A stretch of DNA of 64,000 nucleotides from Amphiscolops sp. MND2022 (GCA_964187785.1 OZ076409.1:74898001-74962000); one strand, 5' to 3'. Positions 1 to 64,000 are shown, counted from the stretch's first letter. Program-made: numbers and translations. Notes: generated by a model from the sequence alone, not told the origin.

Positions 1-852
1 GTCTCCCAAATTAAAGAAACTTCCACACAACTAGGATTGCAAGTGGATGCGTGTGGCAAGCCCTATAATTGAAGCGAAAAATGCCGCTTAGAACGTCTCT
101 TTATCGTAACTTGACGTTAACGTATGGTGCTTTGAATGAGAGCTTGATAAGAGATCGAGAAGTCAAAGTGTGTAAATGGTACGTATGTCTCGTCGAAAAC
201 TCATCGGAAAACATGCAATGAACCCCCAATTGTCCTCAATTGCAGTTGCCTACTGCAACAACGTCTTTCAGGGACATTTTACCCATTTTTATAAGTGTCA
301 AAATTATATTTAAATTCAGTTAGCATGAAACACTTGAGTACATTCTCATCTCTCCCCATCGGGTGAGATGAGAATGTTCTTGCTAAAATCCAGATACTAC
401 GGCCCAATTTTGTTTTATTGCGACGTATTCTGTGCTTTAGCACATAGATACTTTTATGTCGTCTCACTTTTTGTAAACACTCTGAGTTGTTGTTATAAAT
501 TTCTCGTCATTTCTTTACATAAACTTACAACCATGAAACGTTATCATCAACGCCACATACATTTAGACGCCCACCATTCCGTAGGTATGTGGAGGCATAC
601 CTGTCGAGTACGTATGTCAAAACGCAAACGCGATAAAATGTGCTGAAATTCTGAAACAGTGAAACATTTTTGACTATTTGACATATGGTAGGTTTTTAAA
701 TGGAACTTACACATCACTGACATTCCACAACAAACCAGCTGACGCCCACATACCAACATCAACGCCCACCGTCCGTGGGCATGCCGAGGCATGCCCTTCG
801 ACGACGTATGGCAATTCCCTTTATATCTACACCCAATTGCGGTAGCGGCTAG
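1..852 (+). mobile_element. Array unit 0, family E, partial (3' part)
   Basis: Similar to 8590-9444; hairpin-2 at about 338-380, core at 759-809, CTAG end. Confidence 0.75.
759..809 (+). other. Conserved subterminal hairpin core (example of 31 copies), putative Rep recognition or termination signal
   Basis: TCAACGCCCACCGTCCGTGGGCATGCCGAGGCATGCCCTTCGACGACGTAT; 9-bp stem at 777-796, roughly 45-56 nt upstream of the unit end. Confidence 0.85.
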
Positions 853-2123
853 GTGGCCGCGTCTTTTAGATGGACTTTTAGCCCTGAGGCGCGGGTAGGG
901 TCCTGCGCCGAGCTGGTGAAAATATACTACGTCCAAATCGCCCGTTCCGGAAACGATCTCGAAAACTGACCGTTAGAAATTCCTGAAAATTTGCATGTGG
1001 CCCCCAATTGGCGAGCAATGAAAAAGTGTAGGAGGTCATTTTTCCCAAATTCCACTGTGAGACGAGATATATGAAAAAAACGGACCCCAAAATGACGGAA
1101 ATTTCACTTTTTGACCATTAATGGGACATTATCTCCCCAGACAAGGCTCGGAGCAAAATTTGTCAGAACCCAAACCTGCAGCAGACTGTTAGAGCAGTAC
1201 ACACAGTAATTTTGAAAGAAATCCGATAATCACATGTTGAGAAATTGACGTTTTTCCGGCGAAATTTCTAGCAAATGCAGTCTATCTCTGCCGTTTTTTG
1301 CCCAAAATTTTTCCGAGACACTCGCCTAAAGGCCTCCCCTGGCCGGTTTACCTCCCAAAAAAACCATTTGGCCCTAAATACGAGGTTTCAGCGTTCTAGC
1401 TTTTCCCAGTAAAAAGTTATGGGACTTAGAAGTTTTTCAAAACTTTTCAAAATTTTTCTAAAAAAGTTCAGGCCGCCCAAAGTGAAGAAACTTCCACACA
1501 ACTAGTATTGCAAGTGAATGCATGTGGAAAGCCCTGCACTTGACGAGAAAAATGCCGTTTAGAACGTCTTTTTATCTCAACTTGATGTTGACTTATGATC
1601 TTTTGAGTAGCGTATAACACGTGATCACAGTAGTGAAAACCCTAATTTTCAAAAATTTTCGAACAATAACGCATGAAAAGAACCTGGAAAAGGTTCCGAT
1701 GGGTCAGTTGGGATGTCTGAAGCTTGTGTACATTCCCGTAGTGTATAGCGGATGTATTTGGGACTTATTAGAAATTGTGATATGTTTTATACAAGTCTTT
1801 GTTTCTCTTAGAATCTTATGCAGTTGAGTACATTCCATCTCCCTCTCAGGGGAGATGTGAATGTACGTTTGTCAAATGCCTTGTATATTTCACATCTTTG
1901 ATGGATTCAAATAACTAAACAAGTGTGATTTGCGTTTGCCGAACCACTGCGACAAAATACCCTAAATCTATAGCGAGATTGTATGGTTTTTGTCTTTAGT
2001 GTTTCGTCTTGTGTAGCCGACTTCCACATCCAAATATCAACGCCCGCCGTCCGTAGGCATGCCGAGGCATGCCTTTCGACGACGTATGCCAAATACCCAA
2101 TGCCACGCTGTCATTATCGCTAG
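853..2123 (+). mobile_element. Array unit 1, family A (1271 bp)
   Basis: Starts GTGGCCGCGTCTTTTAGATGG; near-identical to 35675-36945. Confidence 0.8.
1828..1866. other. Hairpin-2 (example): GTACATTCCATCTCCC-loop-GGGAGATGWGAATGTAC
   Basis: ~16-bp imperfect inverted repeat, usually preceded by CAGTTGA, about 250-277 bp upstream of the unit end in families A, B, C, D, F, G, J, K, N, O. Confidence 0.85.
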
Positions 2124-3391
2124 GTGGCCGTGTCTTTTCGACGTGCTTTTGCATTGAGGAGTGGGTAGGGCCCCGCGACGACCTAGAAGAATTGGATGCT
2201 CACCGAAACGTGCAGAATTCTACGAGATCTCATAGTTTGAGCCATACGATTTTTCTGAAATTTGGCATGTGGCCTGGAATTGGTGAGTAGGTAAAACGTG
2301 CAGGAGGTGATTTTTCCCAAATTCCACTGTGAGACGAGATATGGGCAAATAACGGTCCCAAAAATGGCAAAAATGCACTTTTTTCAACTTTGTCAGCCCA
2401 TATCTCGTTCCCAGGTGCCCGGAGCGGGACGCGTTAAGCTGATAATAAACTCTAGGGTGTTGAGGCTGTACGGGGAAGTCAGGCCCGTTCCGATCGGACT
2501 TGTAGTCTTGGAGAAATAACGGTATTTTTGGGGAACCTTTTCTAACGGTCCAGCTTATCTTTGCCATTTTTTCGAAAATGTACTCGCCTAAAGGCCTCCC
2601 CCTGGCCGAATTTACTCCCAGCAAAACCATTTGGCCCTAAATACGGAGTTTCAGCGTTCCAGCATTCCCGGGCGAAAAGTTGTGGGACTTGGAAAATTTT
2701 CAAAAATTTTCAAAAATTTTTTTTTTCGTTTTCCGGGCCCCCAATGAAGGGGAAACGACCCCCAACCAGTATTTTGAGTGAATTCATGTGGAAAGCCCTT
2801 GTTTTGACGAGAAATGTACCGTTTAGAACATCTTTTTATCTTGACTCAACGTTGACTTATGACGTTTTGAATGTGATGTAAGGATGTAGGAGGCATGTGA
2901 TAAGTTGATGTTTTGAGTCTTTATCTCATATGAAAGCGGTTTAGATGCAAGCTGTCCTGCTCAAAACGTCTTTCGTTGTAATTTTCCAGTGCACCAATAC
3001 CCTTTGGTGTCATATAAACATACTTTTCGTCGATATATTAACAATTTTAATGTATTTATTCCAATTTTTATTATCTTTTAACTCAAAACAGTTGAGTACA
3101 TTTCATCTCCCTTTCGGGGGAGATGAGAATGTACTCGCTAAAGACCTAGCGCCATGACCAAAAGTTTGAAACCCACGTTTTTTATCTTCTTACAGACTTG
3201 TTTTTGTATTTTTTCGGAATTTTTTAAAAATTAATATACTTGAAATACATTACTTGACTTTACTACTACAACCAACCTCCAACGACAACGCTCCCCTGCT
3301 TGCATCAACGCCCACCGTCCGTGGGCATGCCGAGGCATGCCCTTCGACGACGTATGCCAAATGCCCAGTGCCACGCAGTCATTATCGCTAG
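2124..3391 (+). mobile_element. Array unit 2, family B (1268 bp)
   Basis: Starts GTGGCCGTGTCTTTTCG; hairpin-2, core, CTAG. Confidence 0.8.
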
Positions 3392-4676
3392 GTGGCCGTG
3401 TCTTTTCGACGTGCTTTTGCATTGAGGAGTGGGTAGGGCCCCGCGACGACCTAGAAGAATTGGATGCTCACCGAAACGTGCAGAATTCTACGAGATCTCA
3501 TAGTTTGAGCCATACTATTTTTCTGAAATTTGGCATGTGGCCTGGAATTGGTGAGTAGGTAAAACGTGTAGAAGGTAATTTTTCCCAAATTCCACTGTGA
3601 GAGGAGATATGGGCAAATAACGGACCCAAAAATGGGGAAAATGCACATTTTTCAACTTTGTCAGCCAATATCTCTTTTCCAGGTGCCCGTAGCGTTCCGC
3701 ACGTGGACATCAATATTGCTCAGCGCTGTCGGAAGAGTGCGTGGACAAATTTTGGTTTAAATCGGACTTAAACTTGACGAGAAATTAACGGTTTTTTGGG
3801 CGTTTCCGGGGTAAATTTTTTAACGGTCCAGCTTATCTTTGCCATTTTTTCGAAAATGTACATGCCTAAAGGCCTCCCCCTGGCCGAATTTACTCCCAGC
3901 AAACCCATTTGGCCCTAAATACGGAGTTTCAGCGTTCCAGCATTCCGGGGCGGAAAGTTGTGGGACTTGGAAAAATTTCAAAATTTTTTCAAAAAATTTT
4001 TTTCCCGTTTTCCGGGCCCCCAATGAAGGGGAACGACCCCCCAACCAGTATTTTGAGTGAATTCATGTGGAACGCCCATGTTTGGAGGAGAAAAATGCCG
4101 TTTAGCACATCTTTTTATCTTAACTTGACATTGACTTATGACGTTTTGAATGTGATGTTAGGATATATGAAGCATGTTAAAAGTTGAAGTTTTGAGTCTT
4201 TATCTCATCGGAAAACCATTGAGATACAAGCAGTTTTGCTAAAAACGATTTTCATTGTAGGTTAGCAGAGTATTAGTACACTTTGATGTCATTTGAGTAT
4301 TTTTTTCTTCTATATAATAACTGTTTTTATGTATTTATTCCAATTTATCTCATCTTTTAACATCAAGCAGTTGAGTACATTTCATCTCCCTTTCGGGGGA
4401 GATGAGAATGTACTCGCTAAAAACCTAATGCTATGGCGCCAATGTTTGGATGGGAAGTTTTCTATGCTTTGAAAAAAGTTATTTTTAATTACTTGATTTT
4501 TTATAACAATAATTAACATGAAGTACATTACTTGCTCCTACTACTACTACCACCATACATCTCTAACGTCAACGCCCCCTGCTTGCATCAACGCCCCATC
4601 GTCCGTGGGCATGCCGAGGCATGCCCTTCGACGACGTATGCCAAATGCCCAGTGCCACGCAGTCTTTCCCCGCTAG
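3392..4676 (+). mobile_element. Array unit 3, family B variant (1285 bp)
   Basis: First ~290 bp near-identical to unit 2, then diverges. Confidence 0.8.
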
Positions 4677-5979
4677 GTGGCCACGACCATGGTTTCTTGC
4701 GTATCTTGTCGAATCCTTTGTCGTTGCCGGCCGGGGAGGGACCCGTTTGCCGGCGTGTGTAGTGTGGGGCCCCCATACCCAAAAAGTGGTATTTTTTTCA
4801 GAGATCTCAAAATCGGCCCGTCAGAATTGCCTGAAATTTGGCATGAGGCTCCCAATTGGGGAAAAAATAAGAAGTGTAGAAGGCGACTTGTTCGGGTAAA
4901 TATTGTATGTTGACTTTTGGCCAAAATAGTGTTCCCCCCCAACATGGGCAAAATCACATGAGGTGTAAAAATATGATCACAACTTTTGAACCTTTGGATT
5001 TAGGGGTACGGTCGTGGACTACATTAAGCAAGAGCTTTGGTGCGCGGGTAGGATAGATGGGTTTTGATCCCAGTACCTTCAACCACTTTTGAGAAATTAA
5101 CGTTTCAAACAAACATCCGGGAGGTATATGTAGCCCCTGAAGGCAGGTTTTTCGCCATTTTCAATGTGAAGGAGTGGGTTTAGCGCAACGTGAGTGGGGT
5201 GCTTTTTTGTTGCCCGTGTGCGGAGCGTTGTATAGAGGTGCTGGTTGTTGAAATTGGAAAAGTTGGTAAAAAGTTATACCTTTACCCCCCCTACTGTCTC
5301 TGCCATTCAATTTTTTTTTCAACTTCAGGCCTCCCAAAGGTGAGAAACTTCCACACAACTAGTATTGCAAGTGAATGCATGTGGAAAGTACTCGGATAGA
5401 CGAGAAAAATGAGCTATAGAACGACTCTGTAGCTCAACTTGACGTTGACTTATGACATTTTGAGTGTGAGCTTGCTATGTGAGAAAAAAATTCAAAATTG
5501 AAAATCGAAGTAAGTCTCATCCAAAACTCATCGAAATACGTTCAATCCATCCCAAAGCGGATTAATTCCAGATATATAGTGCAGCAACACTATTCAAGAC
5601 CATTTGACACAATTTTACTAGTTTTGACATTGTATTATTCATCCGAGAGCACAAAACAGTTGGGTACATTCCATCTCCCTTTCGGGGGAGATGAGAATGT
5701 ACCCGCTAAATGACACGCACCATGGTCTAAATTTTACCGTTATGCGACGCTTTCTAGGCTTTCGCGCAAGCCCACTAATATTTAGACTGGTTTCGTTCTC
5801 TTTCACTCCAAACATTCCGTCCGTACTAACCACCTTACACACCACCAGCAGCTCAACGACACATCTGTAACGTCAACGCCACATACTCGCATCAACGCCC
5901 ACCGTCCGTGGGCATGCCGAGGCATGCCCTTCGACGACGTATGCCCGTTGTCACAACAGGGCGCCCCTACATTCTCTAG
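4677..5979 (+). mobile_element. Array unit 4, family C (1303 bp)
   Basis: Unique 5' half; segment after hairpin-2 resembles family F. Confidence 0.75.
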
Positions 5980-7250
5980 GTGGCCGGGAATGTTTTTTTC
6001 CAACCAATTCGATGCCAACTGGGGGAGGGGCCCCTGGTGGCTGTTACCCGAAATACATACCTACTAAATTCCGGTCGTCTGAGTACGATCTCGAAAACCA
6101 CCCAGTAACTTTTTCTGAAACTTTGCATACAGGCTTAGAATCAAATCCTAAGAACTATTTCCTACTGGCGTTTTTCCGAATTTTTTCAAAAAGTTGGTCA
6201 AAAATGCAACAAAAGTTGCCATTGGACATAAAAAACGCAACTTTTGGACTTTGAGGGCTAATAACTTTTTCCAGAGTGCCCGGAGCGGTTCGCACGTGGA
6301 CCACAATATTGTTCAGCATTGTCGGGGGAGTGCGTGGACAAATTTTGGTTTGAATCGGATGAAAATTGACTGAGAAATAAACGCAAATTTTCGTGCATTT
6401 GTTGCAAATACCAGTCTATCTCTGCCATTTTCGCCCATAATTTTTCCCAGAGCCTTTACAGGAGGCAACCCCTGCCCAAATTTTTGCCGAACAAACCCAT
6501 TTGGCCCTAAATACGGGGTTTCAGCGTTCCAGCATTCCCGGGCGAAAAGTTGTGGGACTTAGAAAATTTTCAAAAAAACGCAAAAATTGTAAAAAGTAAC
6601 TTCAGGCGCCCCAAAGTCACAAAACTTCCACACAACTAGTATTGCAAGTGAATGCATGTGGAAAGTACTTGGATAGACGAGAAAAATGAGCTATAGAACA
6701 ACTCTGTAGCTTAATTTTACGTTGACTTATGACATTTTGAGTGTGAGCATCCTATAGGATTTTAATTTCAAAAATGAGATTTTGTAAGTCATGTCTCATC
6801 AAAAACTCATCGGAATACGTTCAATCATCCCCATAGCTGTTCAATTACCGTGGCTTAGTAGAGCAACACCATTTAATGTCTTTGCACCCATTTTTAAAAT
6901 TTTCGAAATCGTCGTATTCGTCCGATATCACGAAACAGTTGAGTACATTCCATCTCCCCCTTGGGGGGAGATGAGAATGTACTTGCCAAAGACCTAATAT
7001 AATGGCTCATATTGTTTTTTATTTAACCTTTCTCACAATATTGCACACGGATAGCTGTGTTTGGTAAACGTTTTCCTTTGCACCATACCTCCAAAAGCTA
7101 AACCACTTCTTTAGCTTATTACTTCTACTCAAACATCACTAACGTCAACGCAACATACTTCAATCAACGCCCACCGTCTGTGGGCATGCCGAGGCATGCC
7201 CTTCGACGACGTATGCCAAATAGCGCCACCTGGCGCCAAATTTTAACTAG
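5980..7250 (+). mobile_element. Array unit 5, family D (1271 bp)
   Basis: 5980-6941 homologous to 38334-39293. Confidence 0.8.
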
Positions 7251-9444
7251 GTGGAGGTTATTTTATAATAATTAATGTGTTTTTTTCCGGAGTTTGTGGC
7301 TTTGGAAAAAACAAAAGGCGAGAAATCGGGCACTCCGGGCTGAACCGTATACACTCAAATTTCGCCCATTTTTTATACGATCTCGAAACTCAGCCGTACG
7401 ATTTGGCTGAAAATTTGCATGCGGCTACAAATTGAGATTCTAAGAACTATTTCCTGGTGACATTTTTTTGAAATTTTTGTGTACGTTTCCCCCCCGCCCC
7501 CTAAAGGGGCCAATTTTCCCCACTTTTGCACTTATGAGTCAAATTCTCAAAACTGGTGGATCTGAGCGTATTCCCGCCGGGGACAACTTTTAACAAGCGC
7601 TCCTCAGTAGACCTTCATGACTTTTTACTTTGGTGGTACGTTCACCCCCCGAGGAGGAAATTGCGTTTTTGTGACTTCCGGTCGAGGCTTTTTTCACCCA
7701 AAAATTAGATTTAAGCCAGTTTTGAGCAGGAAGGAGTGGATTTAAAGTGCCTGTACCCTGCTAAAAATTTGTTGGGCTTGTAGCGATATATCTCATACCA
7801 AGTCTGGTTTTCACCCCCAAACCCCCCTTGAGACCAAAATTCACCCAAAGTTTTTTACCTCTGTTTGTAGTTTTTTTTACCGAATATCGTCATTTCCATG
7901 GGTAAGGAGTTGAATTAGGGGCTCCTAATAGGGTACCAATGTTCAAGTACACTTGCAGTGCAACTGATTGACCCTTTTTGGGCCTCTCCTGTGTTCGGCA
8001 AGGACCGGAAGCGGTGTAACCCCCCCTTTTTTGACGTTTGTTGACCTTGAGACTCGCGCTTAGATGACGTTTATGTCGCGCGAATCCTACAAACAAGTAT
8101 TAGGATGACATGCTAGCCAACTAGAGAGCAGTAAGGGAAACAATATTATACCGGAAGTAACCCCCCGTGACCGGAAGTTGTCATTTTTGACCGCAAATGG
8201 TCCAAAACCTAGCGTAAAAGCAGTTTTTCATTGCTTTTAAAGTCAACTTCTTACATTTTTCAATCTGCGCGAGCTTTTCTTCAGGTTCGTTTTTGTTGCC
8301 AGTGCACAGCAACGAATATACAACTGTAAAATTTTCGCTATAAAATTGTCGGAGAGAGAAATAACGGATTATTTGGACTTTTTTTCAAAAATATTAGTCT
8401 ACATCTGTCATTTTTACCCAATGTTACTCAACAGTAGAACCACAGGTTTTATTCTCTGCCCAAAAATATGCCTAACAAATTCACCTGTCCCTTTGGTTGC
8501 AGTTTGAGCATTCTAGCTTTACCTGGTCACAAGTTAGGGGACTTGAAAAAGTTTCAAAAATTTTTCCGAAAAATTTTTCTAAACGTCATGTCTCCCAAAG
8601 TTAAGAAACTTCCGCACAACTAGGATTACAAGTGAATGCACGTGGTAAGACCTATAATTGGAGAGAAAAATTCAGTTTGGAACGTCTCTTTATCGTAACG
8701 TGACGTTAAGAGAAGTTGCTTTGAATGCGAGCTTGATGAGACGTCGAGAAGTAACAGTGTGTAAATGGAACCTATGTCTCGACAAATACTCATCGGAATA
8801 CATGAGATGAACCCCAATTACCCTCAATTTCAGTTGCCTAGTACAACAACGTCTTCCAAGGACCCTTTAATCTTTTTGATAAGCGTTGAAGTCATCATTA
8901 GCTTGAGTTCGCAAGAAACAATTGAGTACATTCTCATCTCTCCCCATCGGGTGAGATGAGAATGTTTTTGCTAAAAGCCAGGTACTACGGCCCAATTTTG
9001 TTTTATTGCGACGCATTCTGTGCTTTAGCACATAGATACTTTTATTCCGTCTCACTTTTTGTATACACTCTGATTTGTTGTTATAAATTTCTCGTCATTA
9101 CTTTACATAAACTAATTACCATAAAACTTTAACGTCAAAGCCACATTCATTTAGACGCCCACCATTCCGTAGGTATGCCGAGGTATGCCATTCAAAGATG
9201 TATGTCAAACGCAAATGCGATAAAATTAGTGCTGAAAATCGGAAACAGTGACAAACAGTTTTGACTTTTTGATATTTGTTAGGTTTTCATATGGAACTTA
9301 CACATCACTGACAATTCAAAACATTCCAGCTGACGCTCACATACAAACATCAACGCCCACCGTCTGTGGGCATGCCGAGGCATGCCCTTCGACGACGTAT
9401 AGCAAATTCCTTTAATATCTACACCCAATTGCGGTAGCAGCTAG
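7251..9444 (+). mobile_element. Array unit 6, family E (2194 bp), chimeric
   Basis: ACCGGAAG-rich 5' half related to family L (8150-8230 vs 25992-26072); hairpin-2-type 3' half; extra degenerate core at 9154-9208. Confidence 0.75.
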
Positions 9445-10715
9445 GTGGCCGCGTCTTTTAGATGGACTTTTAGCCCTGAGGCGCGGGTAGGGTCCTGCGC
9501 CGACCTGGTGAAAATATACTCCTGGCAAATGGCCCGAATCGGAGACGATCTCAAAACTGGCCCGTACGATTTTCCTGAAAATTTGCATGTGGCCCCCAAT
9601 TGGCGAGCAATGAAAAAGTGTAGGGGGTCATTTTCTCCTGGTTTCATTGTGAGACGAGATATATGAAAAAAACGGACCCCAAAATGACGAAATTTTCACT
9701 TTTTGACCAAAAATGTGACATTATCTCCTCAGACAGGGCTCGGAGCACAATTTTTCAGGACCCAAACCTGCAGCAGACTGTTAGAGCAGTGCACACAGTA
9801 AGTTTGAAGGAAATCGGATAATCACATGTTGAGAAATTGACGATTTTCCGACAAATTTTTTTGCATTTGCAGTCTATCTCTGCCGTTTTTTGCCCAAAAT
9901 TTTTTCGAGACCCTCTCCTAAAGACCTCCCCTGGCCGGTTTACCTCCCAAAAAAACCATTTGGCCCTAAATACGAAGTTTCAGCGTTCTAGCATTCCCCA
10001 GTGAAAAGTTATGGGACTTAGAACTTTTTCAAAAATTTTCAAAATTTTTCTAAAAAAGTTCAGGCCGCCCAAAGTGAAGAAACTTCCACACAACTAGTAT
10101 TGCAAGTGAATGCATGTGGAAAGCCCTGCACTTGACGAGAAAAATGCCGTTTAGAACGTCTTTTTATCTTAACTTGATGTTGACTTATGATCTTTTGAGT
10201 AGCGTATAACACGTGATCACAGTAGTGAAAATCCTAATTTTCAATAATTTTCAAACAATAACGCATGAAAAGAACCTGGAAAAGGTTCCGATGGGTCAGT
10301 TGGGATGTCGGAAGCATGTGTACATTCCCGTAGTGTATAGCGGATGTATTTGGGACTTATTAGAAATTGTGATATATTTTATACAAGTCTTTGTTTCTCT
10401 TAGAATCTTATACAGTTGAGTACATTCCATCTCCCTCTCAGGGGAGATGTGAATGTACGTTTGCCAAATGCCTTGTAAAGCTCACAATTTTGATGGATTC
10501 AAATAACTAAACAAGTGTGATTTGCGTTTGCCGAACCACTGCGACAAAATATCCTAAATCTATAGCGAGATTGAATGGTTTTTGTCTTTAGTGTTTCTTC
10601 TTGTATAGCCGACTTCCACAACCAAATATCAACGCCCACCGTCCGTGGGCATGCCGAGGCATGCCCTTCGACGACGTATGCCAAATACCATATGCCACGC
10701 TGTCATTATCGCTAG
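9445..10715 (+). mobile_element. Array unit 7, family A (1271 bp)
   Basis: Homologous to unit 1. Confidence 0.8.
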
Positions 10716-50391: not shown

Positions 50392-50509
50392 TCCTGTCTG
50401 GCATTTTTCAAACTGATACCTTGAAATCATATTTGGCTCTTGTCTTTTAACTGCACTATCGTGTTTTGTGTTATATGAATCAAAAATTCCCAAATTGCCG
50501 TTGATTTTC

Positions 50510-52710: not shown

Positions 52711-53334
52711 GGAGTGTTGGTGTTTGTAGATTTTCAATCCAATTCCGTTATTCATTTCTGTTCTGTGCTCTTTATGTAACTTTCGGATTGTTAAACTCAC
52801 TTTTCCTAAGTTTCTCGCTCTAATATTTCTATTCCATTCTTTCCTGTTTTGATCTTGCTTGTGTTGTCTTGACAAATAATCATATACCTGTTTCCTCTAT
52901 ACTTCCATCAAATCCTTGTCAACACAAGTAATTTGATCAGTTAGCAATGAGTACTTTTTAAATGTAAATTCACAGTTTTAAAGTTGGGAAAAATATAATA
53001 CTTAGTCAATACTTGTGTTTTCAATCAATATAGGTTCCAGGTGGATTGCAGATAGTTATACTGGCAGCTCTTTTACATCCTAGACAAATTTATCCCCGAA
53101 TCAACTTATCGGATAAATATTTGTCCTACAGAGAACGTTTGATTAATGTCAGTGCGCTTGTTTTTCGTGTGAAGATTTAAACACTGAATAGCCAATAAAT
53201 CAGAGGAAAACCGTTTCCGCAATTTCAATAAACGTAAAACCTGACATCAACGCCCACTGTCTGTAGGCATGCCGTGGCATGCCTTTCGACGACGTATGCC
53301 AAATACATATAGCCCCGCTGTCTTTCCCCGCTAG

Positions 53335-54607
53335 GTGGCCGCGTCTTTTGTCGAACTTTAACCATGGAGGCGCGGGTAGGGTCCTGCGCCGACTTAGTGC
53401 CTTTACTATGATACAAAAATAGGTACCTGAGTAAACGATCTCGAAGATGAGCCGTCAGAAATTCCTGAAAATTTGCATGTGGCCCCCAATTGGCGAGCAT
53501 ATGAAAAGTGTAGGAGGTCATTTTTCCCAAATTCCACTGTGAGACGAGATAAACGCGAAAAATGAGGTAAAAAATGGACCCATTTTTGATAAATTTTGCA
53601 ATATCTCGTTCCAGAGGCATCGGAGGTACCGTATACCTGACGTGGAAAATGCTCGGCATGTGAAGGGGGTTACGTGGACAAATTTTCGTCCAAATCGGAT
53701 AAAAATTGACAGAGTAATAACAAATTTTTTTGTGCATTTTGGCGACTTTTTCAGAAAACCCAGTTTATCTCTGCCGTTTTTTGCCCAAAATTTTTTCGAG
53801 ACCCTCTCCTAAAGACCTCCCCTGGCCGGTTTACCTCCCAAAAAAACCATTTGGCCCTAAATACGAAGTTTCAGCGTTCCAGCATTCCCCAGTGAAAAGT
53901 TATGGGACTTAGAACTTTTTCAAAAATTTTCAAAATTTTTCTAAAAAAGTTCAGGCCGCCCAAAGTGAAGAAACTTCCACACAACTAGTATTGCAAGTGA
54001 ATGCATGTGGAAAGCCCTGCAATTGACGAGAAAAATGCCGTTTAGAACGTCTTTTTATCTTAACTTGATGTTGACTTATGATCTTTTGAGTAGCGTATAA
54101 CACGTGATCACAGTAGTGAAAATCCTAATTTTCAATAATTTTCAAACATTAACGCATGAAAAGAACCTGGAAAAGGTTCCGATGGGTCAGTTGGGATGTC
54201 GGAAGCATGTGTACATTCCCGTAGTGTATAGCGGATGTATTTGGGACTTGTTAGAAATTGTGATATATTTTATACAAGTCTTTGTTTCTCTTAGAATCTT
54301 ATGCAGTTGAGTACATTCCATCTCCCTCTCAGGGGAGATGTGAATGTACGTTTGCCAAATGCCTTGTAAAGTTCACATGTTTGAAGGACTTAACTAAAAA
54401 AACAAGTGTGAGTTGCGTTTGCCGAATCGCTACAGCAAAAAATACTAAAACTTTAGTCAGATTGAATGGTTTTTGTCTTTAGTGTTTCTTCTTGTATAGC
54501 CGACTTCCACATCCAAATATCAACGCCCACCGTCCGTAGGCATGCCGAGGCATGCCTTTCGACGACGTATGCCAAATACCCAATGCCACACAGTCTTTCC
54601 CCGCTAG
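53335..54607 (+). mobile_element. Array unit 27, A-related mosaic (1273 bp)
   Basis: Divergent first ~420 bp, family-A sequence from about 53760. Confidence 0.75.
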
Positions 54608-55996
54608 GTGGTTGGGGCGGTCCCCAGAACGCACAAGGAGGCGCGGGGAGGGTCCTGCGCCGACGTAGAATAATTTCATATAATACTAGTATCCTACATG
54701 GGTGTTTTAGAGGCGATTTTGGAATCTAACCGTAGGATTTGGATAATTTTTTGCATGCGGCCATAACTCGAAATTCTAAGAACTTTTTCCTACTGTCATT
54801 TTCCCCGCAAATTGTTTTTTGTTGACTTATGGCCGAAAAACCGGAAATAACGTCCTTTTTAGACGTTATATCCGAAGTGTCGTCATAACTTTTTTCCAGG
54901 GCATGCTAGCGTTCTCGTTCACTTTTACACTTAGTTGCAGCATCTCAAAATACAACTGGTGGAAAATTTTGGTTGCATTCGGATCACCCCCCACCGAGAT
55001 AGAAGGGTTCCCCCCTCAAGTTTTACCCCCCAAATTTGCGAAAAAGCCAATTTTGAGCATGAAGCCGAGGATTTAGCCTACCCGCACCCTTCTGATGTTT
55101 TGTTGTACGTATTGGGGTCAATCGGACGACATGTGTGGTTTTCACCCCCAACCCCCCCTGGGACCGGAAATGACATTTTTTTGTGTTTTTTTGGCAGAAA
55201 TTAGCCTTTTTCATTATTTGGCAGTCGTTTTAGGGACTCCTAGCAGGATATCGAAATTGAAATACAACCTGATCACAACCCAGTGACAACATGTTGGCCA
55301 TTTGGAGGTACCATCATGACCGGAAGTGGGGTCAACCCCCCTTTTTGTGACCGCTTTTTGACCTTGTGAACCAAAATGCCAACAACTTGAGGTTTAATGA
55401 CGCATTCAAATCTGTACAAAGATAGAATGTTAGACAACCAAAGTCCCGGAAGATCTTTAGCATATACCGGAAGTTGACCCCCATGACCGGAAGTTACCCA
55501 ATGTGACCGGAAATGGTCCAAAAAGTAATGTAAAGTTGAATTTTTCACTTTTTAAAGACCACTTCATTGAACATTTTCATTCCCAAAACTAGCGTACTGG
55601 CTTGTTTTGCTGGATTTATGGAAATTGATGAGCTCTATCACCCCCGATAGCCTTCGAAGTTGACCTTGCGTCAACTTTGGAGGCTATCGATACTGAAAAT
55701 GAACAACAAAGTACATTGTTGCTCTCGGTTTTTTCCCGTTGTTTTTCCTCAAACATTCTTGAGACATATACATGGCCGTTAGTTGAAATCAATATTTAGC
55801 CCATGTTATAGCTGGAGCAGCGAAAGGTTACACAGACTAGTGTGGATTTGAAATTACATTATTTAAATTAACAACTGACCGTCTTAGTCAACTCCACACA
55901 TTCATACCAACGCCCACCGTCTGTGGGCATGCCGAGGCATGCCCTTCGACGACGTAGGACAAATCCACTCCAACGACACCCGCAGTCCTCAGCTAG
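54608..55996 (+). mobile_element. Array unit 28, family I (1389 bp)
   Basis: Homologous to units 23 and 25; hairpin-3 at 55645-55689. Confidence 0.8.
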
Positions 55997-57275
55997 GTGC
56001 GCCGGGGTTATGTCCCCATCCTAAAAGTGGCGGCTAGGGTAGGGCCCCGTGGCCGCCTTCACCCCACCGAAGGTTAAACTATCTAGGCCAAACTGTAGCT
56101 CTCTGGTATCGATCTCGAAGATGAACCGTAGGAATTGGCTAATTTTTTGCATGCAGCCCTAAAATCGCAATACAAGACGAAAGTCCTAGTGGCATTTTGC
56201 CGAAAAAATATTTGGTCATGCCGAAAAACCCTATTTTTTTGAGAAAAAACGACTTTTTTTCAATTTTTTCTAATTTAAGCGATTATAACTATGTTTAGAG
56301 TGCTCGGAGCGATTCGGACGTGGAGCACAATATTGTTAAGCGGTTCGCGAAGAGTACGTAGGGCAATTTTGATGCGGATGGAACGAATAGTCGAGGAGAA
56401 ATAGACAGATTTCTACGAATTTTTTTCAAAAAAAAATTTTTTTTTCTACATTTTTGCCCAAAAATCTAAAAAATACACTCATATGGGCTCATGGGGGATA
56501 ACCTCTGTCCATATTAGTAGCGTACAGGACCTTTTGGACAATTTGCTACAGTTTCAGCGTTCCAGCATTCCCCTGTGAAAAACTATGTGACTTCCAATAT
56601 TAACAAAAAAAAATTCTCTCCTAATCAGAAGCTTTTTTCAACTTCAGGCCGCCCAAATTCAGGAAACTTCCACACAACTAGGATTGCAAGTGGATGCACG
56701 TTGGAAAGTACTCGGATAGACGAGAAAATTGAGCTATAGAACGACTCTGTAGCTTAAGTTGACGTTGACTTATGATAATTTTAGTGTGAGCTTGTTGTGT
56801 GAGACAGAATGTCAAAAAATGAAAATGGAACTTAAGTCTCATCGAAAACTCCTCGGAAAACGTTGGATCAACCACAGAGCTGTTCAGTTACCGGCATTGA
56901 GTGCAGGAACACTATTTAAAAGTTTTTTGACCCACTATTAGAGATTTTGATACTGTATTAATCATCGCATAGCACAAATCAGTTGAGTACATTCTCATCT
57001 CCCTACGGGGGAGATGAGAATGTACTCTCGAAAGGCCAAGAACAATTACTCTTTTGGGGCCTAAAGGAACGTTTTAACGATTGTATAACATGCTGCAAAA
57101 GAAATTCGACATTGGAAATGATTTTTAGACAGGTTACACTAGCGACTATGTTGAATTACTTAACGTTGAGAAATTGTTTAACGGCATTATTGTTACCAAA
57201 ATTAATATGTCTTCAGTCGACGGTTGTGCATCTATCCACTTTATCTAGTGATTAGTTCTGAGCTGTCATCGCTAG
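55997..57275 (+). mobile_element. Array unit 29, family N (1279 bp), coreless
   Basis: Hairpin-2 at 56985-57027; no GGCATGCC core; CTAG|GTGC end. Confidence 0.75.
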
Positions 57276-58548
57276 GTGCCGGGATTTCCATTCGATAAGG
57301 AATTCTGCGCGTGTGGGTAGGGCCCCTGGCGCGCTCCTGTGTTTTCGGTTTTCCTACTCCTAAATAGACCCCCTGAATTCCGGGATCTCCTAAACTATCC
57401 ATACGATTTGGCTGAAATTTGGCACACGTACCCCCCTCGGCACGGTGAAGATGATTTCCTACTGACGTTTTTCCCGCTAAACATTTTTTGTTGACCAAAA
57501 TAACGGTTTTTGGGGTAAAATTTTGAACTTTTTTTAAATTTCATCTTATATCTCGCCACGGGTACACGCTAGCGCTTCCAAACCTTGCTGACGAAAGTTT
57601 GCAAACTGTCTCAGGAATGCTGTGTGAAATTTTCAGCTCAATCGGACTTAAACTCGAGGAGATATAGCGTTTTCCCGGAGCGGGGGGGTTTCAATTTTCT
57701 AACGGTCCAGCTTATCTTTGCCATTTTTTCGAAAATGCACTCGCCTAAAGGCCTCCCCTGGCCGGTTTTATTCCCAACAAAACCATTTGGCCCTAAATAC
57801 GGAGTTTCAGCGTTCCAGCATTCCCGGGCGAAAAGTTGTGGGACTTAGAAAAGTTCAAAAATTTTCAAAAAAAATTTTTTCCGTTATTTGGGCCCTCAAA
57901 GTGGGGGAAAAGACCCCCCAACCAGTAAAGCAAGTGAATGCATGTGGAAAGCCCTTGTTTAGACGAGAAAAATGCCGTCTAGAACGTCTTTTTATCTTAA
58001 CTTGACATTGACTTTTGTCGTTTTGAAGGTGACCGTTAGATACGGAAAATTGATGTTTTGAGTATTTATCCCATCTGAAAGCCATTGAGATACAACATGT
58101 TTTGCTCAAAACGTGTTTCATTGCAGTTTCGCTGTCCATTATCACCCTTTGGTGTCTTTTCACGTAATTTTCGTTTCTATAATAACAATTTTTTTGTGTA
58201 TTTATTCATTTTATTCTCATCAAATAACTTGAAACAGTTGAGTACATTCCATCTCCCTTCCCGGGGGAGATGAGAATGTACTCGCTAAAGGTCAGGAACT
58301 ACGGTCTATATCTTCCACAACACAAATGGGATTGCAAATGGTTTCAGTTTGTCGCAGAAAACTTCTTTTTGCCCTCTGTGACTCGACAAAATGAACGTTT
58401 CTTACTTACTTTGAAACTCAGCATACCACAACTCATCTCTAACGTCAGCGCCCCCCTACTTGCATCAACGCCCACCGTCCGTGGGCATGCCGAGGCATGC
58501 CCTTCGACGACGTATACCAAGATATACCTGGAGCGCGGTAGCCGCTAG
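57276..58548 (+). mobile_element. Array unit 30, family J variant (1273 bp)
   Basis: J-type start; hairpin-2, core, CTAG. Confidence 0.8.
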
Positions 58549-59835
58549 GTGCCGGGATTTCTATTCGATAAGGTATGTGGCGCGTGTGGGTAGGGTCCCT
58601 GGCGCGCTCTTGGGTATGGTGTTCACCAGCTAGGAAACAGGGGTCGATTTTTCGGGATCTCCTAAACTAGCCACACGATTTGGCTGAAATTTGGCACACG
58701 TACTCCCCTCGGCATGGTGAAGATGATTCCCTACTAGCGTTTTGCTCGCAAAATTTTTTTTGTTGTCCAAAATAACGGTTTTTGGGGTAAAATTTTTAAT
58801 TTTTTTTAAATTTTATCTTATATCTCGCCACCGGTTTACGCTAGCGCTTCAAAACCCTGCTAAAGAAAGCTTGCAAACTGTCTCAGGAATGCTGTGTGAA
58901 ATTTTCAGCTCAATCGGACTTAAACTCGGGGAGATATAGCGTTTTTCCGGAGCGGGGGGGTTTCATTTTTCTAACGGTCCAGCTTATCTTTGCCATTTTT
59001 TCGAAAATGCACTTGCCTAAAGGCCTCCCCTGGCCGGTTTTATTCCCAGCAAAACCATTTGGCCCTAAATACGGAGTTTCAGCGTTCCAGCATTCCCGGG
59101 CGAAAAGTTGTGGGACTTAGAAAAGTTCAAAAATTTTCAAAAAATTTTTTTTTCCGTTTTCCGCCCTCCCCCCCTAGGGGAAAAGACCCCCCAATCAGTA
59201 ATTTGAGTGAATTCATGTGGAAAGGCCATGTTTAGAGGAGAAAAATGCCGTTTAGAACGTCTTTTTATCTTGGCTCAACGTTGACTTATGACGTTTTGAA
59301 GGTGATGTTTGGAGGTGTAAAGCACGTGAATAGTAAACGTTATGAGTATTTATCTGATCTGAAAGCCATTGAGATGAATATGGTTTGCTCAAAACGTAAT
59401 TCATGGCAGTTTGGCACTCAATCAACACCCTTTGTTGTCGTTTGACATACTTTTTTGTTGATATAATAAAAAATTTTGTGTATTTATTCATTTTTTTCTC
59501 ATCAAATAACTTGAAACAGTTGAGTACATTCCATCCCCCCCTTCCGGGGGAGATGAGAATGTACTCGCAAAAAGCACCGAACTACGGCCCTTACCTTCCC
59601 GAGCTACGCAGTATAAGGATTACATATTGGTTCCGACATTTTCATAGAGTTAAATCTTGGTAATCTGTCTGGATATGCAGAAAAACCAGCACGTGCTTTT
59701 TTATACCAAGTTGCTTACAACGACAATTATTTTATATCAACGCCCCCATATTTATCAACGCCCCCCGTCCGTGGGCATGCCGAGGCATGCCCTTCGACGA
59801 CGTATACCAAGATATGTTCGAGCGCGTTAGCCTAG
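58549..59835 (+). mobile_element. Array unit 31, family J (1287 bp)
   Basis: Homologous to units 14 and 32. Confidence 0.8.
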
Positions 59836-61124
59836 GTGCCGGGATTTCTATTCGATAAAGTATGTGGCGCGTGTGGGTAGGGTCCCTGGCGCGCTCTTGG
59901 GTATGGTGTTCACCAGCTAGGAAATAGGGGTCGATTTTTCGGGATCTCCTAAACTAGCCACACGATTTGGCTGAAATTTGGCACACGTACCCCCCTCGGC
60001 ACGGTGAAGATGATTTCCTACTGACGTTTTTCCCGCAAAATTTTTTTTGTTGTCCAAAATAACGGTTTTTGGGGTAAAATTTTGAATTTTTTTTAAATTT
60101 CATCTTATATCTCGCCACGGGTTTACGCTAGCGCTTCAAAACCCTGCTAAAGAAAGCTTGCAAACTGTCTCAGGAATGCGGTGTGAAATTTTCAGCTCCA
60201 TCGGACTCAAACTCAGGGAGATATAGCGTTTTTCCGGAGCGGGGGGGTTTCATTTTTCTAACGGTCCAGCTTATCTTAGCCATTTTTTCGAAAATGTAAT
60301 CGCCTAAAGGCCTCCCCTGGCCGGTTTTATTCCCAGCAAAACCATTTGGCCCTAAATACGGAGTTTCAGCGTTCTAGCATTCCCGGGCGAAAAGTTGTGG
60401 GACTTAGAAAATTTCAAAAATTTTCAAAAAATTTTTTTTCCGTTTTCCGCCCTCCCCCCCTAGGGGAAAAGACCCCCCAACCAGTAATTTGAGTGAATTC
60501 ATGTGGAAAGGCCATGTTTAGAGGAGAAAAATTTCGGTTAAATCGTCTTTTTATCTTTATTCAACGTTGAATTATGACGTTTTGAAGGTGATGTTTGGAG
60601 GTGTGAAGCACGTGAAAAGTAAACGTTATGAGTATTTATCTGATCTGAAAGCCATTGAGATGCAACCTGTTTTGCTCAAAACGTAATTCATATCAGTTTG
60701 GTAGTCAATCAACACCCTTTGTTGTCATTTGACATCTTTTTTTGTTGATATAAGAAAAAATTTCGTGTATTTATTCATTTTTTTCTCATCAAATAACTTG
60801 AAACAGTTGAGTACATTCCATCCCCCCTTCACGGGGGAGATGAGAATGTACTCGCAAAAAGCTCCGAACTACGGCCCTTACCTTCCTGAGCTACGCAGTA
60901 TAAAGATTGCATATTGGTTCCGACATTTTGATAGAGTTATATCTTGGTAATCTGTCTGGGTATGCAGAAAAACCAGCACGTGCTTTTTTATACCAAGTTG
61001 CTCACAACGACATTTATTTTATATCAACGCCCCCATATTTATCAACGCCCCCCGTCCGTGGGCATGCCGAGGCATGCCCTTCGACGACGTATACCAAGAT
61101 ATACATAAGCGCGGTAGCAGCTAG
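59836..61124 (+). mobile_element. Array unit 32, family J (1289 bp)
   Basis: Homologous to unit 31. Confidence 0.8.
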
Positions 61125-62388
61125 GTGGTCGGGGCATCTCCCAACCTCTTCCGGCCGCCCGGGGAGGGTCCTGATGGCGGCCCCCTTCTACGGAATACTT
61201 ACTGTCTTGAAATTTCTGGGAGAAATGCGATTTTCCAAACTACCCGATAGATTTTGCTCAAAATTTGCATACGGCTTCCCAATGAAGGTACAAGAACAAA
61301 TCCCTACTGGCATTTTGCCGGGAAACGTCAAAAATTTGGTCAAAATCACTATTTTCTGACTAAAAAATGGTCATTTTTCAACTTTTTCAACTTTTAGCGG
61401 CTATTACTCCACATAGGGTGCCCGGAGCGATACGGTACCGGACGGCAATATTGTTCAACACTTCGAGTAGAACCTATAGACGTATTTTCGTGCTATTCGG
61501 ATGAAAATTGATTGAGTAATAACCGAAATTTTGACGATTTTTTTCGAAAATTTTTCACACCCTAGTCTATCTCTGCCGTTTTTTGCCCAGATTTTTTTCC
61601 AGGACCTCTCCTAAAGGCCTCCCCTGGCCGGTTTACGTCCCAGAAAAACCATTTGGCCCTTTTGCCGCAGTTTCAGCGTTCCAGGATTTCTTGAGTAAAA
61701 GATAAATGACTTAGAATTTTTTCGAAAAATTTTTAAAAATTTTTTTTTCAACTTCAGGCCCCCCAAAGTCAAAGAACTTCCACACAACTAGTATTGCAAG
61801 TGAATGCATGTGGAAAGAGCTCGAATAGACGAGAAAAATGAGCTATTATAAAACTCTGTAGCTTAACCTGACGTTGACTTATGACAATTTTAGTGTGAGC
61901 TTGCTATGTCGTAAAAATGAAAAAAAAACTCAAAATCGAAGCTAAGTCTCATCCAAAACTCATCGGAATACGTTCAATCAACCCCAGAGCTGTTCAATCA
62001 GCGCTGTTTAGTGCAGCAACGCTATTTAGGGCCTTAGGACCCATTTTGGTAAGTTTTGAAACCGTCTTATCCTTCTAATAGCACAAAACAGTTTCGTACA
62101 TTCCATCTCCCTCTCGGGGGAGATGAGAATGTACTCACAAAAAACCAAGTATGACACCCCCAATCTACCAGCAATGGCGTTATGAAGGCAGCAGCGTGAG
62201 CTTTACAGTAGTCTCTACGTGTGTTGACTCTGAGCTAGTAATGTATTTATATCACCAAACGTGAATGAAATGTTTTACTCCAAAATTATTTTACATTTAA
62301 TATGTCATCAATGCACGCATTTCAATCTATCTACAACTACTACTACTACCTACCCCCGTGCTAGTCACGCACAAGCCTGCAGCGCTAG
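61125..62388 (+). mobile_element. Array unit 33, family O (1264 bp), coreless
   Basis: Hairpin-2 at 62097-62134; 3' part related to unit 16; CTAG|GTGG end. Confidence 0.75.
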
Positions 62389-64000
62389 GTGGTCCGGGGC
62401 TGTATTGTGCCCCACAGTAGTCCTTGCGAGGCCGGGGAGGGTCCCGATTGCCGAGCGCATTATCCAAAATACATCACTAGTCCACCGGGTCGGATTTCGG
62501 CGATTTTGGAATCTAACCATACGATTTAAATAAAACTTTGCACACATACCTAAAATCAAATTATAAGAACTTTTTTCCCCTGACGTATCATCATTGAAAC
62601 ATTTGTTGAAAAGTTATGTGCAAATGATCGTGTTTTTTGGCACTTTTTCGCATTTTTCACACAGTAGCTCCACACTTTACGCTATGCATTTGGCCCATTT
62701 TTTGCGTGCGAGGCATAAATGATGTCATGTTCACACATGCCAAAAATTATTTCTCAATTCGCAACAGGAGTGGAGATATGGCGGATAATATAGGCGGAAA
62801 AAATAACGAATACGAAAATTTGCACATATTTGGCCAACATTTGTTTGAAAAATGAGAAAAAGTAAAAAGTACGCGGATTGCTTTGAAACTTGGCACACAG
62901 GTAGTAGAACAAATTCTAAGAACTTTTTTCTTCTGACGTTTTTCCGAAAAATTGCATCTTCAACCTATATTTGCAATATTTCGGGTTTTTTGATTCAACG
63001 TGATTTATCACTCACATATTCAAAGTCCATTTTCAGCATGAAGCAACGCAGATACCGGCAATGAGCACATATTGCAAAATCATCAACGGCCAACGGTCTA
63101 CCGAACAGTCCAAAAAAATTTTGCCCTCGGGCCCAATCAAAGTGGCCAAAGGTGCCAAAATGTTTTTTCTAACAGTATCACCATTACAAAATTGATGATT
63201 TGACCAGGAGGAACGGTCCGCACGGTCTCGGACCATAAGGTGAAAAAGTGTCAGTGAGTTATGGTGACGACCAAAATGACATCGGTAGACCTCTAGGAGG
63301 CCTCTGAAAAAAAATTGATTTTTTTGAGTCACGGTCCGAGTTGATCTGTTACGTTGTATGAACATTTCATAATCATGTTACTCATAACCGGGTGCAGATA
63401 GCACCGTTGGTCATCTTTATCAAAATGAACATTGGGCAGCGGTCTAACGATTGAGTGTAAAAAATATACCTTAGTTGCTATTGTGAAAGAAAAAAATTCT
63501 CAGAAGTGTTGTTTTCGATTTTTCATGTCGACTCGCAGTTACAAAAAGGTGATTTTCTCTTCAGGAACGGTCCGAACGGTCTAGGACCATAAGGTCAAAA
63601 ATTGTCAGTGTGACATGGTGGCGCCCAAAAACCCATCAGAACACTTGTAGGAAGCTTCTGAAAGAATATCGGATTTTTACGTGGGTCCGAGAGTTATACT
63701 GTCACATCGTAACAACATTTCGGGTATGCATATCTCCTGACAGAGTACAGATAGCATCATGGGTCACCTTTTCGAAAAAGAACGTGGGCCACTGGTCTAT
63801 CGATTGGTCATAAAAAGTTTTCAGTCACTGCTGCACGGCGTGCACAATATGCCAATATGGGGTATTTAGCATTTTTTTGCACGACTCGGACCTACAAAAG
63901 TCCCATTTCTGCTCCACCAACGGTCCGTACGGTCTTGAACCATAAGGTCAAAAAGTGTCAGTGTGCTATGGTGACGCCCAAAAACCCATCAGTACACTTG
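62389..64000 (+). mobile_element. Array unit 34, family P, partial, with internal ~354-bp tandem repeats
   Basis: GGGGAGGGTCCC at 62434; AACGGTCCG..ACGGTC..ACCATAAGGT at 63212, 63566, 63919. Confidence 0.65.

Follow-up and report, generated by a model that had tools for sequence, protein, structure and literature searches.

How a long, aperiodic row of mostly gene-less units, all facing one way and with a Rep-helicase gene among them, comes to be assembled is the question raised by a 64,000-nucleotide stretch of the Amphiscolops sp. MND2022 genome (C1:74,898,001-74,962,000, OZ076409.1, in a 1.07-Gb eukaryote-type assembly), here called the window. A first-pass annotation had described it as units joined at CTRG↓GTG, where the arrow marks the boundary; its unit letters are kept, M being a unit of 3070 bp. 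The results presented below indicate, with a probability of roughly 0.63, that elements of a divergent Helitron-like lineage have piled up here together with their gene-less partners, mostly by insertion of one unit at a time at the junctions between resident units.

The junction motif CT[AG]G↓GTG[GC] was found 34 times on the + strand of the window and twice on the - strand, compared with 1.6 per strand (maximum 5 in 100 runs) under first-order Markov resampling. Cutting at this motif gave 33 complete and two partial units, which reproduced one for one the 35 segments and the exact junctions of the first-pass annotation. The single orientation that it reported was also recovered, as self-comparison of the window gave 807 off-diagonal matches, all on the same strand, and no inverted ones. 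Its estimate of about 16 families was, if anything, low: when units had to be 85% identical over 85% of their length, a strict threshold, the 33 complete units separated into 22 groups. Most units measured 1.26-1.42 kb and the largest 15,001 bp. Three of the 33 (K, N and O) were without the palindromic 3' core, so several classes of 3' end exist. The one coding unit was indeed a Rep-helicase unit, with a stop-free frame of 2369 codons that matched Pfam PIF1 (1.9e-8) and Helitron_like_N (6e-7). No + strand frame of 150 codons or more was present in any small unit of the window, and neither tRNA genes nor Rfam families at gathering score were detected in it.

An exact 29-mer from the 3' core was present in 4733 copies genome-wide (control, 0), and the first 100 places listed lay nearly all within same-strand runs. 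Because 129 of 155 parsed units carried this 29-mer, the genome is estimated to hold about 5,700 units. A 300-residue Rep query gave at least 133 genome matches; 35 of the copies map to the + strand of C1 (70.5-76.5 Mb), and further clusters lie on C2, C3, C4, C7, C8 and others. The window is a slice of a one-strand array of about 6 Mb at C1 70.5-76.5 Mb, and smaller arrays occur on most large contigs. To call the array built around one element was an overstatement: several Rep subfamilies are represented in it, by at least 35 copies with 32-100% identity over the query. The array was sampled as the window with 20 kb on each side of it plus 30-kb blocks at 72.0, 72.5, 73.2 and 75.3 Mb. Both flanks and all four blocks divided wall to wall into units. 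The approximately 425 kb parsed in all yielded 155 units in 53 groups at 85% identity; their 3' ends were CTAG (138) or CTGG (17), and their 5' starts GTGG (113), GTGC (41) or GTAC (1), the finder having required GT.

Some further features of the arrays were recorded. The large clusters at C2:102.0-103.9 Mb and C3:2.4-3.9 Mb each flip strand once (near C2:102.68 Mb and C3:2.6 Mb), by inversion or by a scaffolding flip, and the C2 cluster extends to within 30 kb of the contig end. The presence of several arrays per contig speaks against a one-per-chromosome centromere in its simple form. Unit lengths were tightly clustered (1035-1073, 1262-1315, 1376-1418, 1971-2009, 3052-3073 and 4761-4899 bp) despite about 30% divergence, which could reflect shared ancestry, a spacing constraint or a constraint on circle size.

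The target was read at the borders between elements and other DNA. All eleven element starts found in non-element DNA were preceded by CTNG (five CTTG, four CTGG, one CTCG and one CTAG), and the bases following 17 element ends in such DNA were GT (11), AT (3), TT (2) or GA (1). From these flanks it follows that a unit begins with GTG and ends with CTRG, and that a naive target, CTNG↓GT, looks like a head-to-tail junction. Two 2-unit mini-arrays (4475 and 4356 bp) could be lifted out exactly by comparison with paralogous repeats, with no base gained or lost at nine of nine spanning paralog loci each. The same held for an array of about 16 kb in 10 of 11 paralog loci, where homology past the site extended for only 10-12 bases. 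Insertion was free of duplication in all three empty-site comparisons, the cut falling between the fourth base of the target and GT, with one shared G that leaves a 1-base ambiguity. As judged from these sequence comparisons, the ends, the target and the precision of insertion are established: away from arrays, elements insert at CTNG↓GT without duplication or deletion. Since the naive target is neither duplicated nor deleted, the head-to-tail junction CTRG↓GTG is a perfect target that is regenerated on both sides of every insertion.

Two single loci may be mentioned here. At locus L074 the units of a host tandem repeat mostly read CTGG followed by GA, AA or TA, and the insertion sits in a unit that reads CTGG↓GT. 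A 5'-truncated M-like solo copy (L001:2400-2435 and 5155-5175) showed, as a single case, a near-perfect flanking duplication of about 19 bp starting right after CTGG; truncated Helitron2 copies with variable duplications in Chlamydomonas resemble it (PMC3627910).

The first-pass annotation had named mostly dispersed solo copies and scattered breakpoints as signs that it was wrong. Neither was seen. The sampled arrays divided at CTRG↓GTG ends, and 1416 of the 1474 genome-wide copies of one 3' tail were followed by GTG[GC], that is by a unit start, although in a small number of cases the GTG may belong to a naive flank. Family M comprised 160 5' ends and 149 3' ends genome-wide. For the first 30 M starts, which all lie on C1 and are not a random sample, 28 were preceded by a unit end, from M itself in 10 cases and from other families in 18; these 30 starts and the 11 at naive sites agreed with the starts of the 155 parsed units. 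Bare CTNGGT sites are expected about 1.0 million times genome-wide (136 were counted in 145 kb) against the estimated 5,700 units, and junctions thus make up less than 1% of the candidate targets.

The order of the units was examined for traces of how the arrays grew. Among 131 adjacencies, 104 were heterologous, of 96 types, and 16 family pairs occurred in both orders. Same-family neighbours numbered 27, against 22.7±2.9 in within-region shuffles (201 of 2000 shuffles reached 27). Twenty-four adjacent same-family pairs were 85-98% identical, like distant copies (median 89%), and in ten of ten M-M pairs the neighbour was never the closest copy, ranking 4th to 26th of 29 in similarity. An M-C junction occurred 16 times; the 12 examples examined joined diverse M ends (72-99%) to uniform C copies (98-99%), with unrelated M partners and at least eight different downstream neighbours. 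No word of three different families recurred among the 155 units, and the periodic order and most-alike neighbours of a satellite or higher-order repeat were not observed. The tail between core and junction followed its own unit (adjusted mutual information 0.63) and to a lesser degree the next unit (0.17; n=134). Unequal crossing-over in the shared terminal core, which had been put forward as a contributor to the shuffling, was rejected as the main shuffler because tails follow their own unit. Units ending in CTGG were preceded by CTGG in 9 of 17 cases, and those ending in CTAG in 6 of 138. As about 96% of ends are junctional, adjacent copies of a family are not the most closely related and each tail stays with the unit it belongs to, the arrays appear to have grown by repeated, independent insertions at resident junctions rather than through concatemers, tandem duplication or exchange within the core. 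The earlier proposal of an HUH Rep-helicase lineage with units joined at exact head-to-tail junctions was upheld in this respect, repeated independent insertion being supported by the genomic comparisons.

Several points weigh against this reading. The number of copies does not equal the number of insertions, and some dispersed copies may have been lost by purging or may have diverged too far for the exact patterns used to find them. Local composition is patchy, with 2-kb families dominating three of the four 30-kb blocks, unlike the window. Ten of the 30 M starts examined followed another M; such patterns could also stem from local hopping or from the duplication of blocks. Since the M-C junction recurs, the M+C mini-array may have moved by read-through as a single block. 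The M copy of the M+L mini-array is 99.8% identical to an array copy, which fits a read-through dimer too. Internal recombination occurs, since 5' and 3' halves were discordant in 6 of 60 units of the 1.27-kb class, and the preference of CTGG-ending units for CTGG neighbours is unlike pure independent insertion. The same termini were not seen in relatives on metagenome contigs, so the target rule is established for the Amphiscolops genome only; circles, nicking and de novo insertion are steps that we infer. Some of these points would suit a Rep that reads only the CTNG↓GT hexamer, with arrays arising by local hopping or in a junction-rich chromatin domain and dispersed copies being lost by purging or decay. 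Bare hexamers do carry some solo and mini-array insertions, family make-up varies by region, and of five M copies at naive sites four have diverged further (best match 0.95-0.97) than most array copies. Moreover, all seven verified solo Rep copies were broken, compared with long frames (≥2150 codons) in 28 of the 35 copies of the C1 array, the solos coming from 12 isolated loci chosen with frame lengths known (seven solos, one in an array, four with no visible end). This explanation is nevertheless unlikely: although CTNG↓GT sites also occur inside units, the sampled arrays divide at unit ends only; neighbours are not closest relatives, contrary to local hopping; and the HLE1-like and DUF6570-bearing HLE2-like Helitrons of the same genome are dispersed over many contigs, so that dispersal itself is tolerated.

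The order might also have been scrambled mainly by the Rep, through precise excision, read-through and re-insertion of multi-unit blocks in an integron-like engine rather than by single-unit immigration. Deletions or moves between two nick sites would yield exact new junctions as well, 16 M-C junctions among about 149 M ends and runs of C-M-C-M fit such movement, and termination failure of 1-14% is reported for IS91-family elements (PMC13181058). Such shuffling is rather improbable as the main engine given the lack of any recurring three-family word and the varied partners and neighbours of the M-C junctions. Far less weight is given to ordinary tandem turnover by rolling-circle concatemers, unequal crossing-over and gene conversion in shared blocks, which as the main cause is already mostly refuted. 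Helitron arrays in tandem have been described (PMC5876387, PMC12001565), some units are mosaic as noted above, and some families share tails (18 tail types for 37 body types). However, adjacent same-family copies are no closer than distant ones and their number falls within the range seen in shuffles, each tail goes with its own unit, and homologous exchange cannot make 96 junction types at one base position. That repeated ends were stitched in arbitrary order during assembly is scarcely credible. The orientation flips in the C2 and C3 clusters and the arrays on small unplaced contigs do point to regions that are hard to scaffold, but short mixed arrays stand in unique-enough flanks with exact empty paralogs, adjacent units differ by 2-15% and share ends of less than 150 bp, and the same architecture recurs on many contigs.

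The 5' end of a unit consists of GTG, a small hairpin, and a second hairpin with a family-specific stem and a conserved G-rich loop. Among 33 distinct types, native arms of this hairpin gave -8.3 kcal/mol, against -5.9±0.3 for arms swapped between families (0 of 200 shuffles). Most 3' ends run from the palindromic core through a variable tail to CTRG. Many units contain a hairpin at about 970 nt, and an internal block (510-750 nt) is found both in the 1.27-kb families and in several autonomous elements. No compensatory change was found among 18 predicted pairs of the block (14 sequences), and thus no covarying RNA structure. The block, about 250 bp long, is conserved, and constant in its distance from the 5' end, across elements with Reps that share only 33-43% identity; it may be a promoter, an origin or a protein-binding module.

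All ten fully bounded Rep-bearing elements that were fetched (12-21 kb) had the GTG...CTAG form of a unit and lay within arrays between other units, and the first 300 bases of seven were 93-99% identical to a small family. The small units are on these grounds gene-less partners of the autonomous elements. A chimeric origin of the window Rep unit, from D and an element unrelated to it, was considered but dropped because its 19-21-kb relatives begin with the same D-type end. These relatives carry extra sequence after the first 960 nt or so, and it is there that the approximately 6 kb by which the window unit is shorter than its 21-kb relatives is missing. Two 14-kb stretches with M-type ends (C1:71601603-71615683 and C4:77151376-77165455, read from coordinates) enclose a Rep frame of 2545 codons and are likely the autonomous partner of unit M. 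For this family no excess of 3' over 5' ends, as expected of one-ended transposition, was seen (149 against 160).

The Rep proteins keep the HUH, YxxxY, Walker A and Walker B motifs across 26 aligned sequences. A Rep profile aligned to the HUH and tyrosine motifs of Helraiser (E 0.0059), and the sole match of a predicted Rep-region model was Helraiser (PDB 7LCC; E 2.4e-7), with Z 16.1 and a root-mean-square deviation of 4.1 over 296 residues (next Z 6.3). A C-terminal GIY-YIG match was present in 11 of 13 relatives scanned, and an OTU-like match in five. The ratio of nonsynonymous to synonymous divergence (dN/dS) was 0.14-0.18 in three diverged pairs of open reading frames (ORFs), and two copies differed by a dS of only 0.007. 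At E <1e-30 the lineage comprised 190 clusters at 50% identity, from ENA, Logan, JGI and NCBI; the one named relative is from Perkinsus olseni (37%). In a tree, 23 clade members stood apart from five HLE1-like and six HLE2-like Reps of the same genome, with a Shimodaira-Hasegawa-like approximate likelihood ratio (SH-aLRT) support of 99. This tree is quick and unrooted, with long branches and five proteins left out, and its HLE labels follow Pfam score rather than named references, DUF6570 being present in five of the six HLE2-like rows. DUF6570 was absent from all 19 clade proteins scanned (the window protein and 18 relatives) and present in all five long HLE2-like frames of the same genome. 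On sequence grounds this is a divergent Rep-helicase lineage, HUH(Y2)-Pif1-GIY-YIG, on its own branch apart from HLE1-like and HLE2-like Reps, with a predicted fold nearest to that of Helraiser.

Other hosts provided a few observations on this lineage. On the metagenome relative L171, a 177-bp direct repeat of 93% identity (9240-9416 and 17960-18133) brackets the ORF, 8.7 kb apart, and may mark unit boundaries in another host. Several divergent Reps came from public assemblies with an identical longest contig (four at 1,297,008 and two at 656,643), which hints at Rep clustering in those assemblies too. Thirty pattern matches in viral contigs gave no confirmed case.

Accessory sequences of the autonomous elements were also inspected. 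Several carry a downstream ORF (L031:3973-4986, L035:4449-5846, L033:6979-8127 and L028:4157-5128; 25-30% identical), whose nearest look-alikes are OB-fold single-stranded DNA-binding proteins (POT1, CTC1, RPA and baculovirus LEF-3). The ORF had no Pfam match and was not seen as a long frame in the window element; the putative OB-fold label is a lead only, the model being of low confidence (predicted local distance difference test score, 47.5). An SGNH/GDSL-hydrolase-like ORF occurs in some elements (L033:5313-5969; Atlas 0.92-0.93). A G-rich GGG[T/G]AGGG loop is found in nearly all 5' hairpins, and the window element contains TTAGG(C) telomere-like repeats (see table). Together with the POT1-like accessory protein, these might suggest, as speculation, a telomere-type single-strand binding.

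Comparison with known systems, drawn from the available text of the papers cited, places the lineage within the RepHel superfamily and outside what defines both HLE1 and HLE2. With canonical Helitrons (HLE1; Helraiser) it shares the fusion of a Y2 HUH Rep to Pif1, a 3' hairpin with a CTRR end, the lack of target duplication, an RPA-like accessory gene and head-to-tail junctions. It differs in that array units begin with GTG and not TC, in the target, which is CTNG↓GT and not A↓T, in its separate branch and in the C-terminal GIY-YIG. Helitron tandems are described as one heterologous head-to-tail pair from consecutive insertion in maize (PMC2267711) and as same-family runs of 2-7 copies in Xenopus (PMC12001565), whereas here about 96% of ends lie in mixed arrays of thousands of full-length units. 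With HLE2 (Helitron2/Helentron), the array clade shares hairpins at both ends and, in some relatives, an OTU domain, and one HLE2 family is reported to have captured a GIY-YIG; the published targets are A↓T for HLE1 and T↓T for HLE2 (PMC11417382). The clade differs from HLE2 in being without DUF6570, in a target other than T↓T and in its separate branch. No long inverted matches were present in the window; terminal inverted repeats of 8-15 bp, an HLE2 trait, were not searched for.

In target logic the closest likeness is to the bacterial IS91 family (IS91, IS801, IS1294), for which a target of CTTG/GTTC (minor CTCG, CTGG) next to oriIS, a terminator cut at CTCG, a tetranucleotide that the target resembles, no duplication, and two palindromes at the target-adjacent end with one at the other are reported (PMC13181058). 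Likewise, CTNG preceded all 11 naive starts of array elements, whose own ends read CTRG. IS91 elements differ in being bacterial, small and without a helicase, while the array Rep is fused to Pif1 and has a Helitron-like predicted fold. We know of no megabase mixed arrays in the IS91 family. Integrons are aperiodic one-direction arrays joined at a short core, with a tyrosine recombinase, a single attI site and promoterless gene cassettes. The integron-like architecture claimed initially fits the layout of discrete units in one direction joined at one short core, but not the machinery or the contents: there is no single attI entry site, the units are gene-less rather than cargo cassettes, and many mobile Rep genes lie inside the array as units. 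No tyrosine-recombinase integrase was found in the sampled array, where the sole long + strand frame of the window is RepHel and the other frames of autonomous units are OB-fold-like or SGNH-like. IS91-type target logic is a closer model than the integron because the units are gene-less, no integrase is present and solo insertions occur at CTNG↓GT.

Several traits are shared with the third-clade Helitrons of Paramecium (PMC13085455): RepHel ORFs that are divergent, very long and subject to purifying selection, strict orientation, satellites inside the elements, a genomic compartment of their own, and a target, there C4A2 telomeric repeats, with last bases equal to the CCAA end of the element. 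Array elements are instead flanked by other units or unrelated repeats. One Paramecium ORF, read by eye, differed in its canonical HUH spacing and in having no visible C-terminal GIY-YIG, a domain not mentioned in the available text of that paper; our tree was without Paramecium proteins. Self-clustering has parallels among retroelements: mixed one-direction head-to-tail arrays of autonomous and non-autonomous elements are formed by HeT-A/TART/TAHRE in Drosophila (PMC6581046), and DIRS-1 of Dictyostelium prefers existing copies and forms centromeric clusters (PMC5633606). Both differ in being retrotransposons; the former add at chromosome ends, and DIRS-1 nests with no apparent sequence preference, whereas array units insert at the exact junction and leave residents whole. 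Also described are a single-family subtelomeric Helitron expansion in Hydractinia (PMC11934779), nested Helitron self-insertion in Fusarium (PMC5148889) and the helicase-less Replitrons (PMC10288648). HELIANO reported unclassified elements in 19 genomes, which may include the HUH-Pif1-GIY-YIG clade. Neither such a clade with a CTNG↓GT target nor megabase mixed arrays were described in the literature searched, which left Repbase, Dfam and subscription journals outside, and this branch of rolling-circle (Helitron-like) transposons is apparently undescribed so far. Nothing further came from PMC4224331 or from a centromere atlas preprint (10.64898/2026.09.17.752431). Xiong is said to have reported a plant centromeric Helitron array in 2016.

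A mechanism for one-at-a-time growth can be proposed. By analogy with Helraiser and IS91, the Y2 HUH domain would nick the GTG end, the Pif1 helicase would peel off one strand, and a second nick after the 3' hairpin would close a circle with a CTRG↓GTG junction; circles and junction cleavage have been demonstrated for Helraiser (PMC5876387). Strand transfer would then join the circle into a chromosomal CTNG↓GT, and each insertion would regenerate two junctions. In the least certain step, resident junctions would outcompete bare hexamers by means of Rep-binding hairpins on both sides, and each Rep subfamily may have some preference for its own end class. The array would then be a self-made safe harbour, in which insertions never break one another and intact Reps persist. 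A bolder version is doubtful: that this is a third major and widespread branch (HUH-Pif1-GIY-YIG) whose Rep is a junction-specific integrase and excisionase, that the megabase arrays are living cassette systems, with addition, removal and reordering of units all taking place at a single nick site, and that the conserved left module of about 1 kb, or the array itself, has a host role (e.g. as centromere, pairing or small-RNA locus).

Table 1. Units, junctions and coding features located in the window (positions counted from its first base).
Feature	Position	Strand	Basis
E-type unit, 3' part (begins upstream of window)	1..852	+	junction cut
Unit A, 1271 bp, non-autonomous	853..2123	+	
5' subterminal hairpin, example: family-specific stem, conserved G-rich loop	888..909	+	
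Conserved internal block, example, ~510-750 nt from 5' end	1364..1600	+	
Internal hairpin, example, ~960-985 nt from 5' end	1826..1870	+	
3' palindromic core, example, ~50-70 nt before CTRG end	2056..2073	+	
CTAG↓GTGG junction, example (3' end of one unit, 5' end of next)	2120..2127	+	
Unit B, 1268 bp	2124..3391	+	
Unit B variant, 1285 bp; same 5' type, different 3' body	3392..4676	+	
Unit C, 1303 bp; young family, copies 97-99% identical	4677..5979	+	
Unit D, 1271 bp; 5' end common to Rep element family	5980..7250	+	
Unit E, 2194 bp; second degenerate core at 9173	7251..9444	+	
Unit A, 1271 bp	9445..10715	+	
Unit A, 1271 bp	10716..11986	+	
Unit F, 1288 bp	11987..13274	+	
Unit G, 1278 bp	13275..14552	+	
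Unit H, 2792 bp, internal duplications	14553..17344	+	
Unit I, 1390 bp	17345..18734	+	
Unit F, 1288 bp	18735..20022	+	
Unit J, 1287 bp	20023..21309	+	
Unit with F-type 5' end and different 3' body, 1271 bp	21310..22580	+	
Unit K, 1271 bp, without 3' core, CTGG end	22581..23851	+	
Unit A, 1270 bp	23852..25121	+	
Unit L, 1403 bp	25122..26524	+	
Unit M, 3070 bp, CTGG end; family used for flank tests	26525..29594	+	
Unit L variant, 1418 bp	29595..31012	+	
Unit F', 1280 bp	31013..32292	+	
Unit H', 1994 bp	32293..34286	+	
Unit I, 1388 bp	34287..35674	+	
Unit A, 1271 bp	35675..36945	+	
Unit I, 1388 bp	36946..38333	+	
Autonomous-type element, 15,001 bp; D-type 5' end, core-type CTAG 3' end	38334..53334	+	
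Degenerate TTAGG/TTAGGC-like repeats inside autonomous element	39449..39790	+	
Stop-free frame, 2369 codons, first ATG 43039: Cys-rich N-terminus, HUH Rep, Pif1 helicase, degenerate GIY-YIG	42781..49890	+	
HUH motif (HIH)	46180..46200	+	
Two-tyrosine motif (YxxxY)	46705..46719	+	
Walker A of Pif1-type helicase	48094..48117	+	
GIY-YIG-like domain; catalytic signature eroded in window family, intact in other array Reps	49558..49780	+	
296-bp tandem repeat, 3.7 copies, inside autonomous element	50512..51595	+	
Unit A', 1273 bp	53335..54607	+	
Unit I, 1389 bp	54608..55996	+	
Unit N, 1279 bp, without 3' core	55997..57275	+	
Unit J variant, 1273 bp	57276..58548	+	
Unit J, 1287 bp	58549..59835	+	
Unit J, 1289 bp	59836..61124	+	
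Unit O, 1264 bp, without 3' core	61125..62388	+	
Unit P, 5' part; 4899 bp in all, CTGG end downstream of window	62389..64000	+	

The choice of target and the joining step of Helitron-type elements have been poorly resolved so far. As the target here is a defined hexamer equal to the circle junction, and natural, recent full-length Reps and dozens of substrate ends exist, the strand-transfer step is directly testable. The lineage links eukaryotic Helitrons to the target rule of IS91, and it would represent a DNA transposon that builds its own safe harbour, amounting to an estimated 1% or so of the genome. It is also a broad lineage that would be missed by finders based on TC...CTRR ends and inverted repeats. 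An insertion site that is scarless, fixed in orientation, repeatable and self-regenerating may be of interest for the stacking of DNA in genomes.

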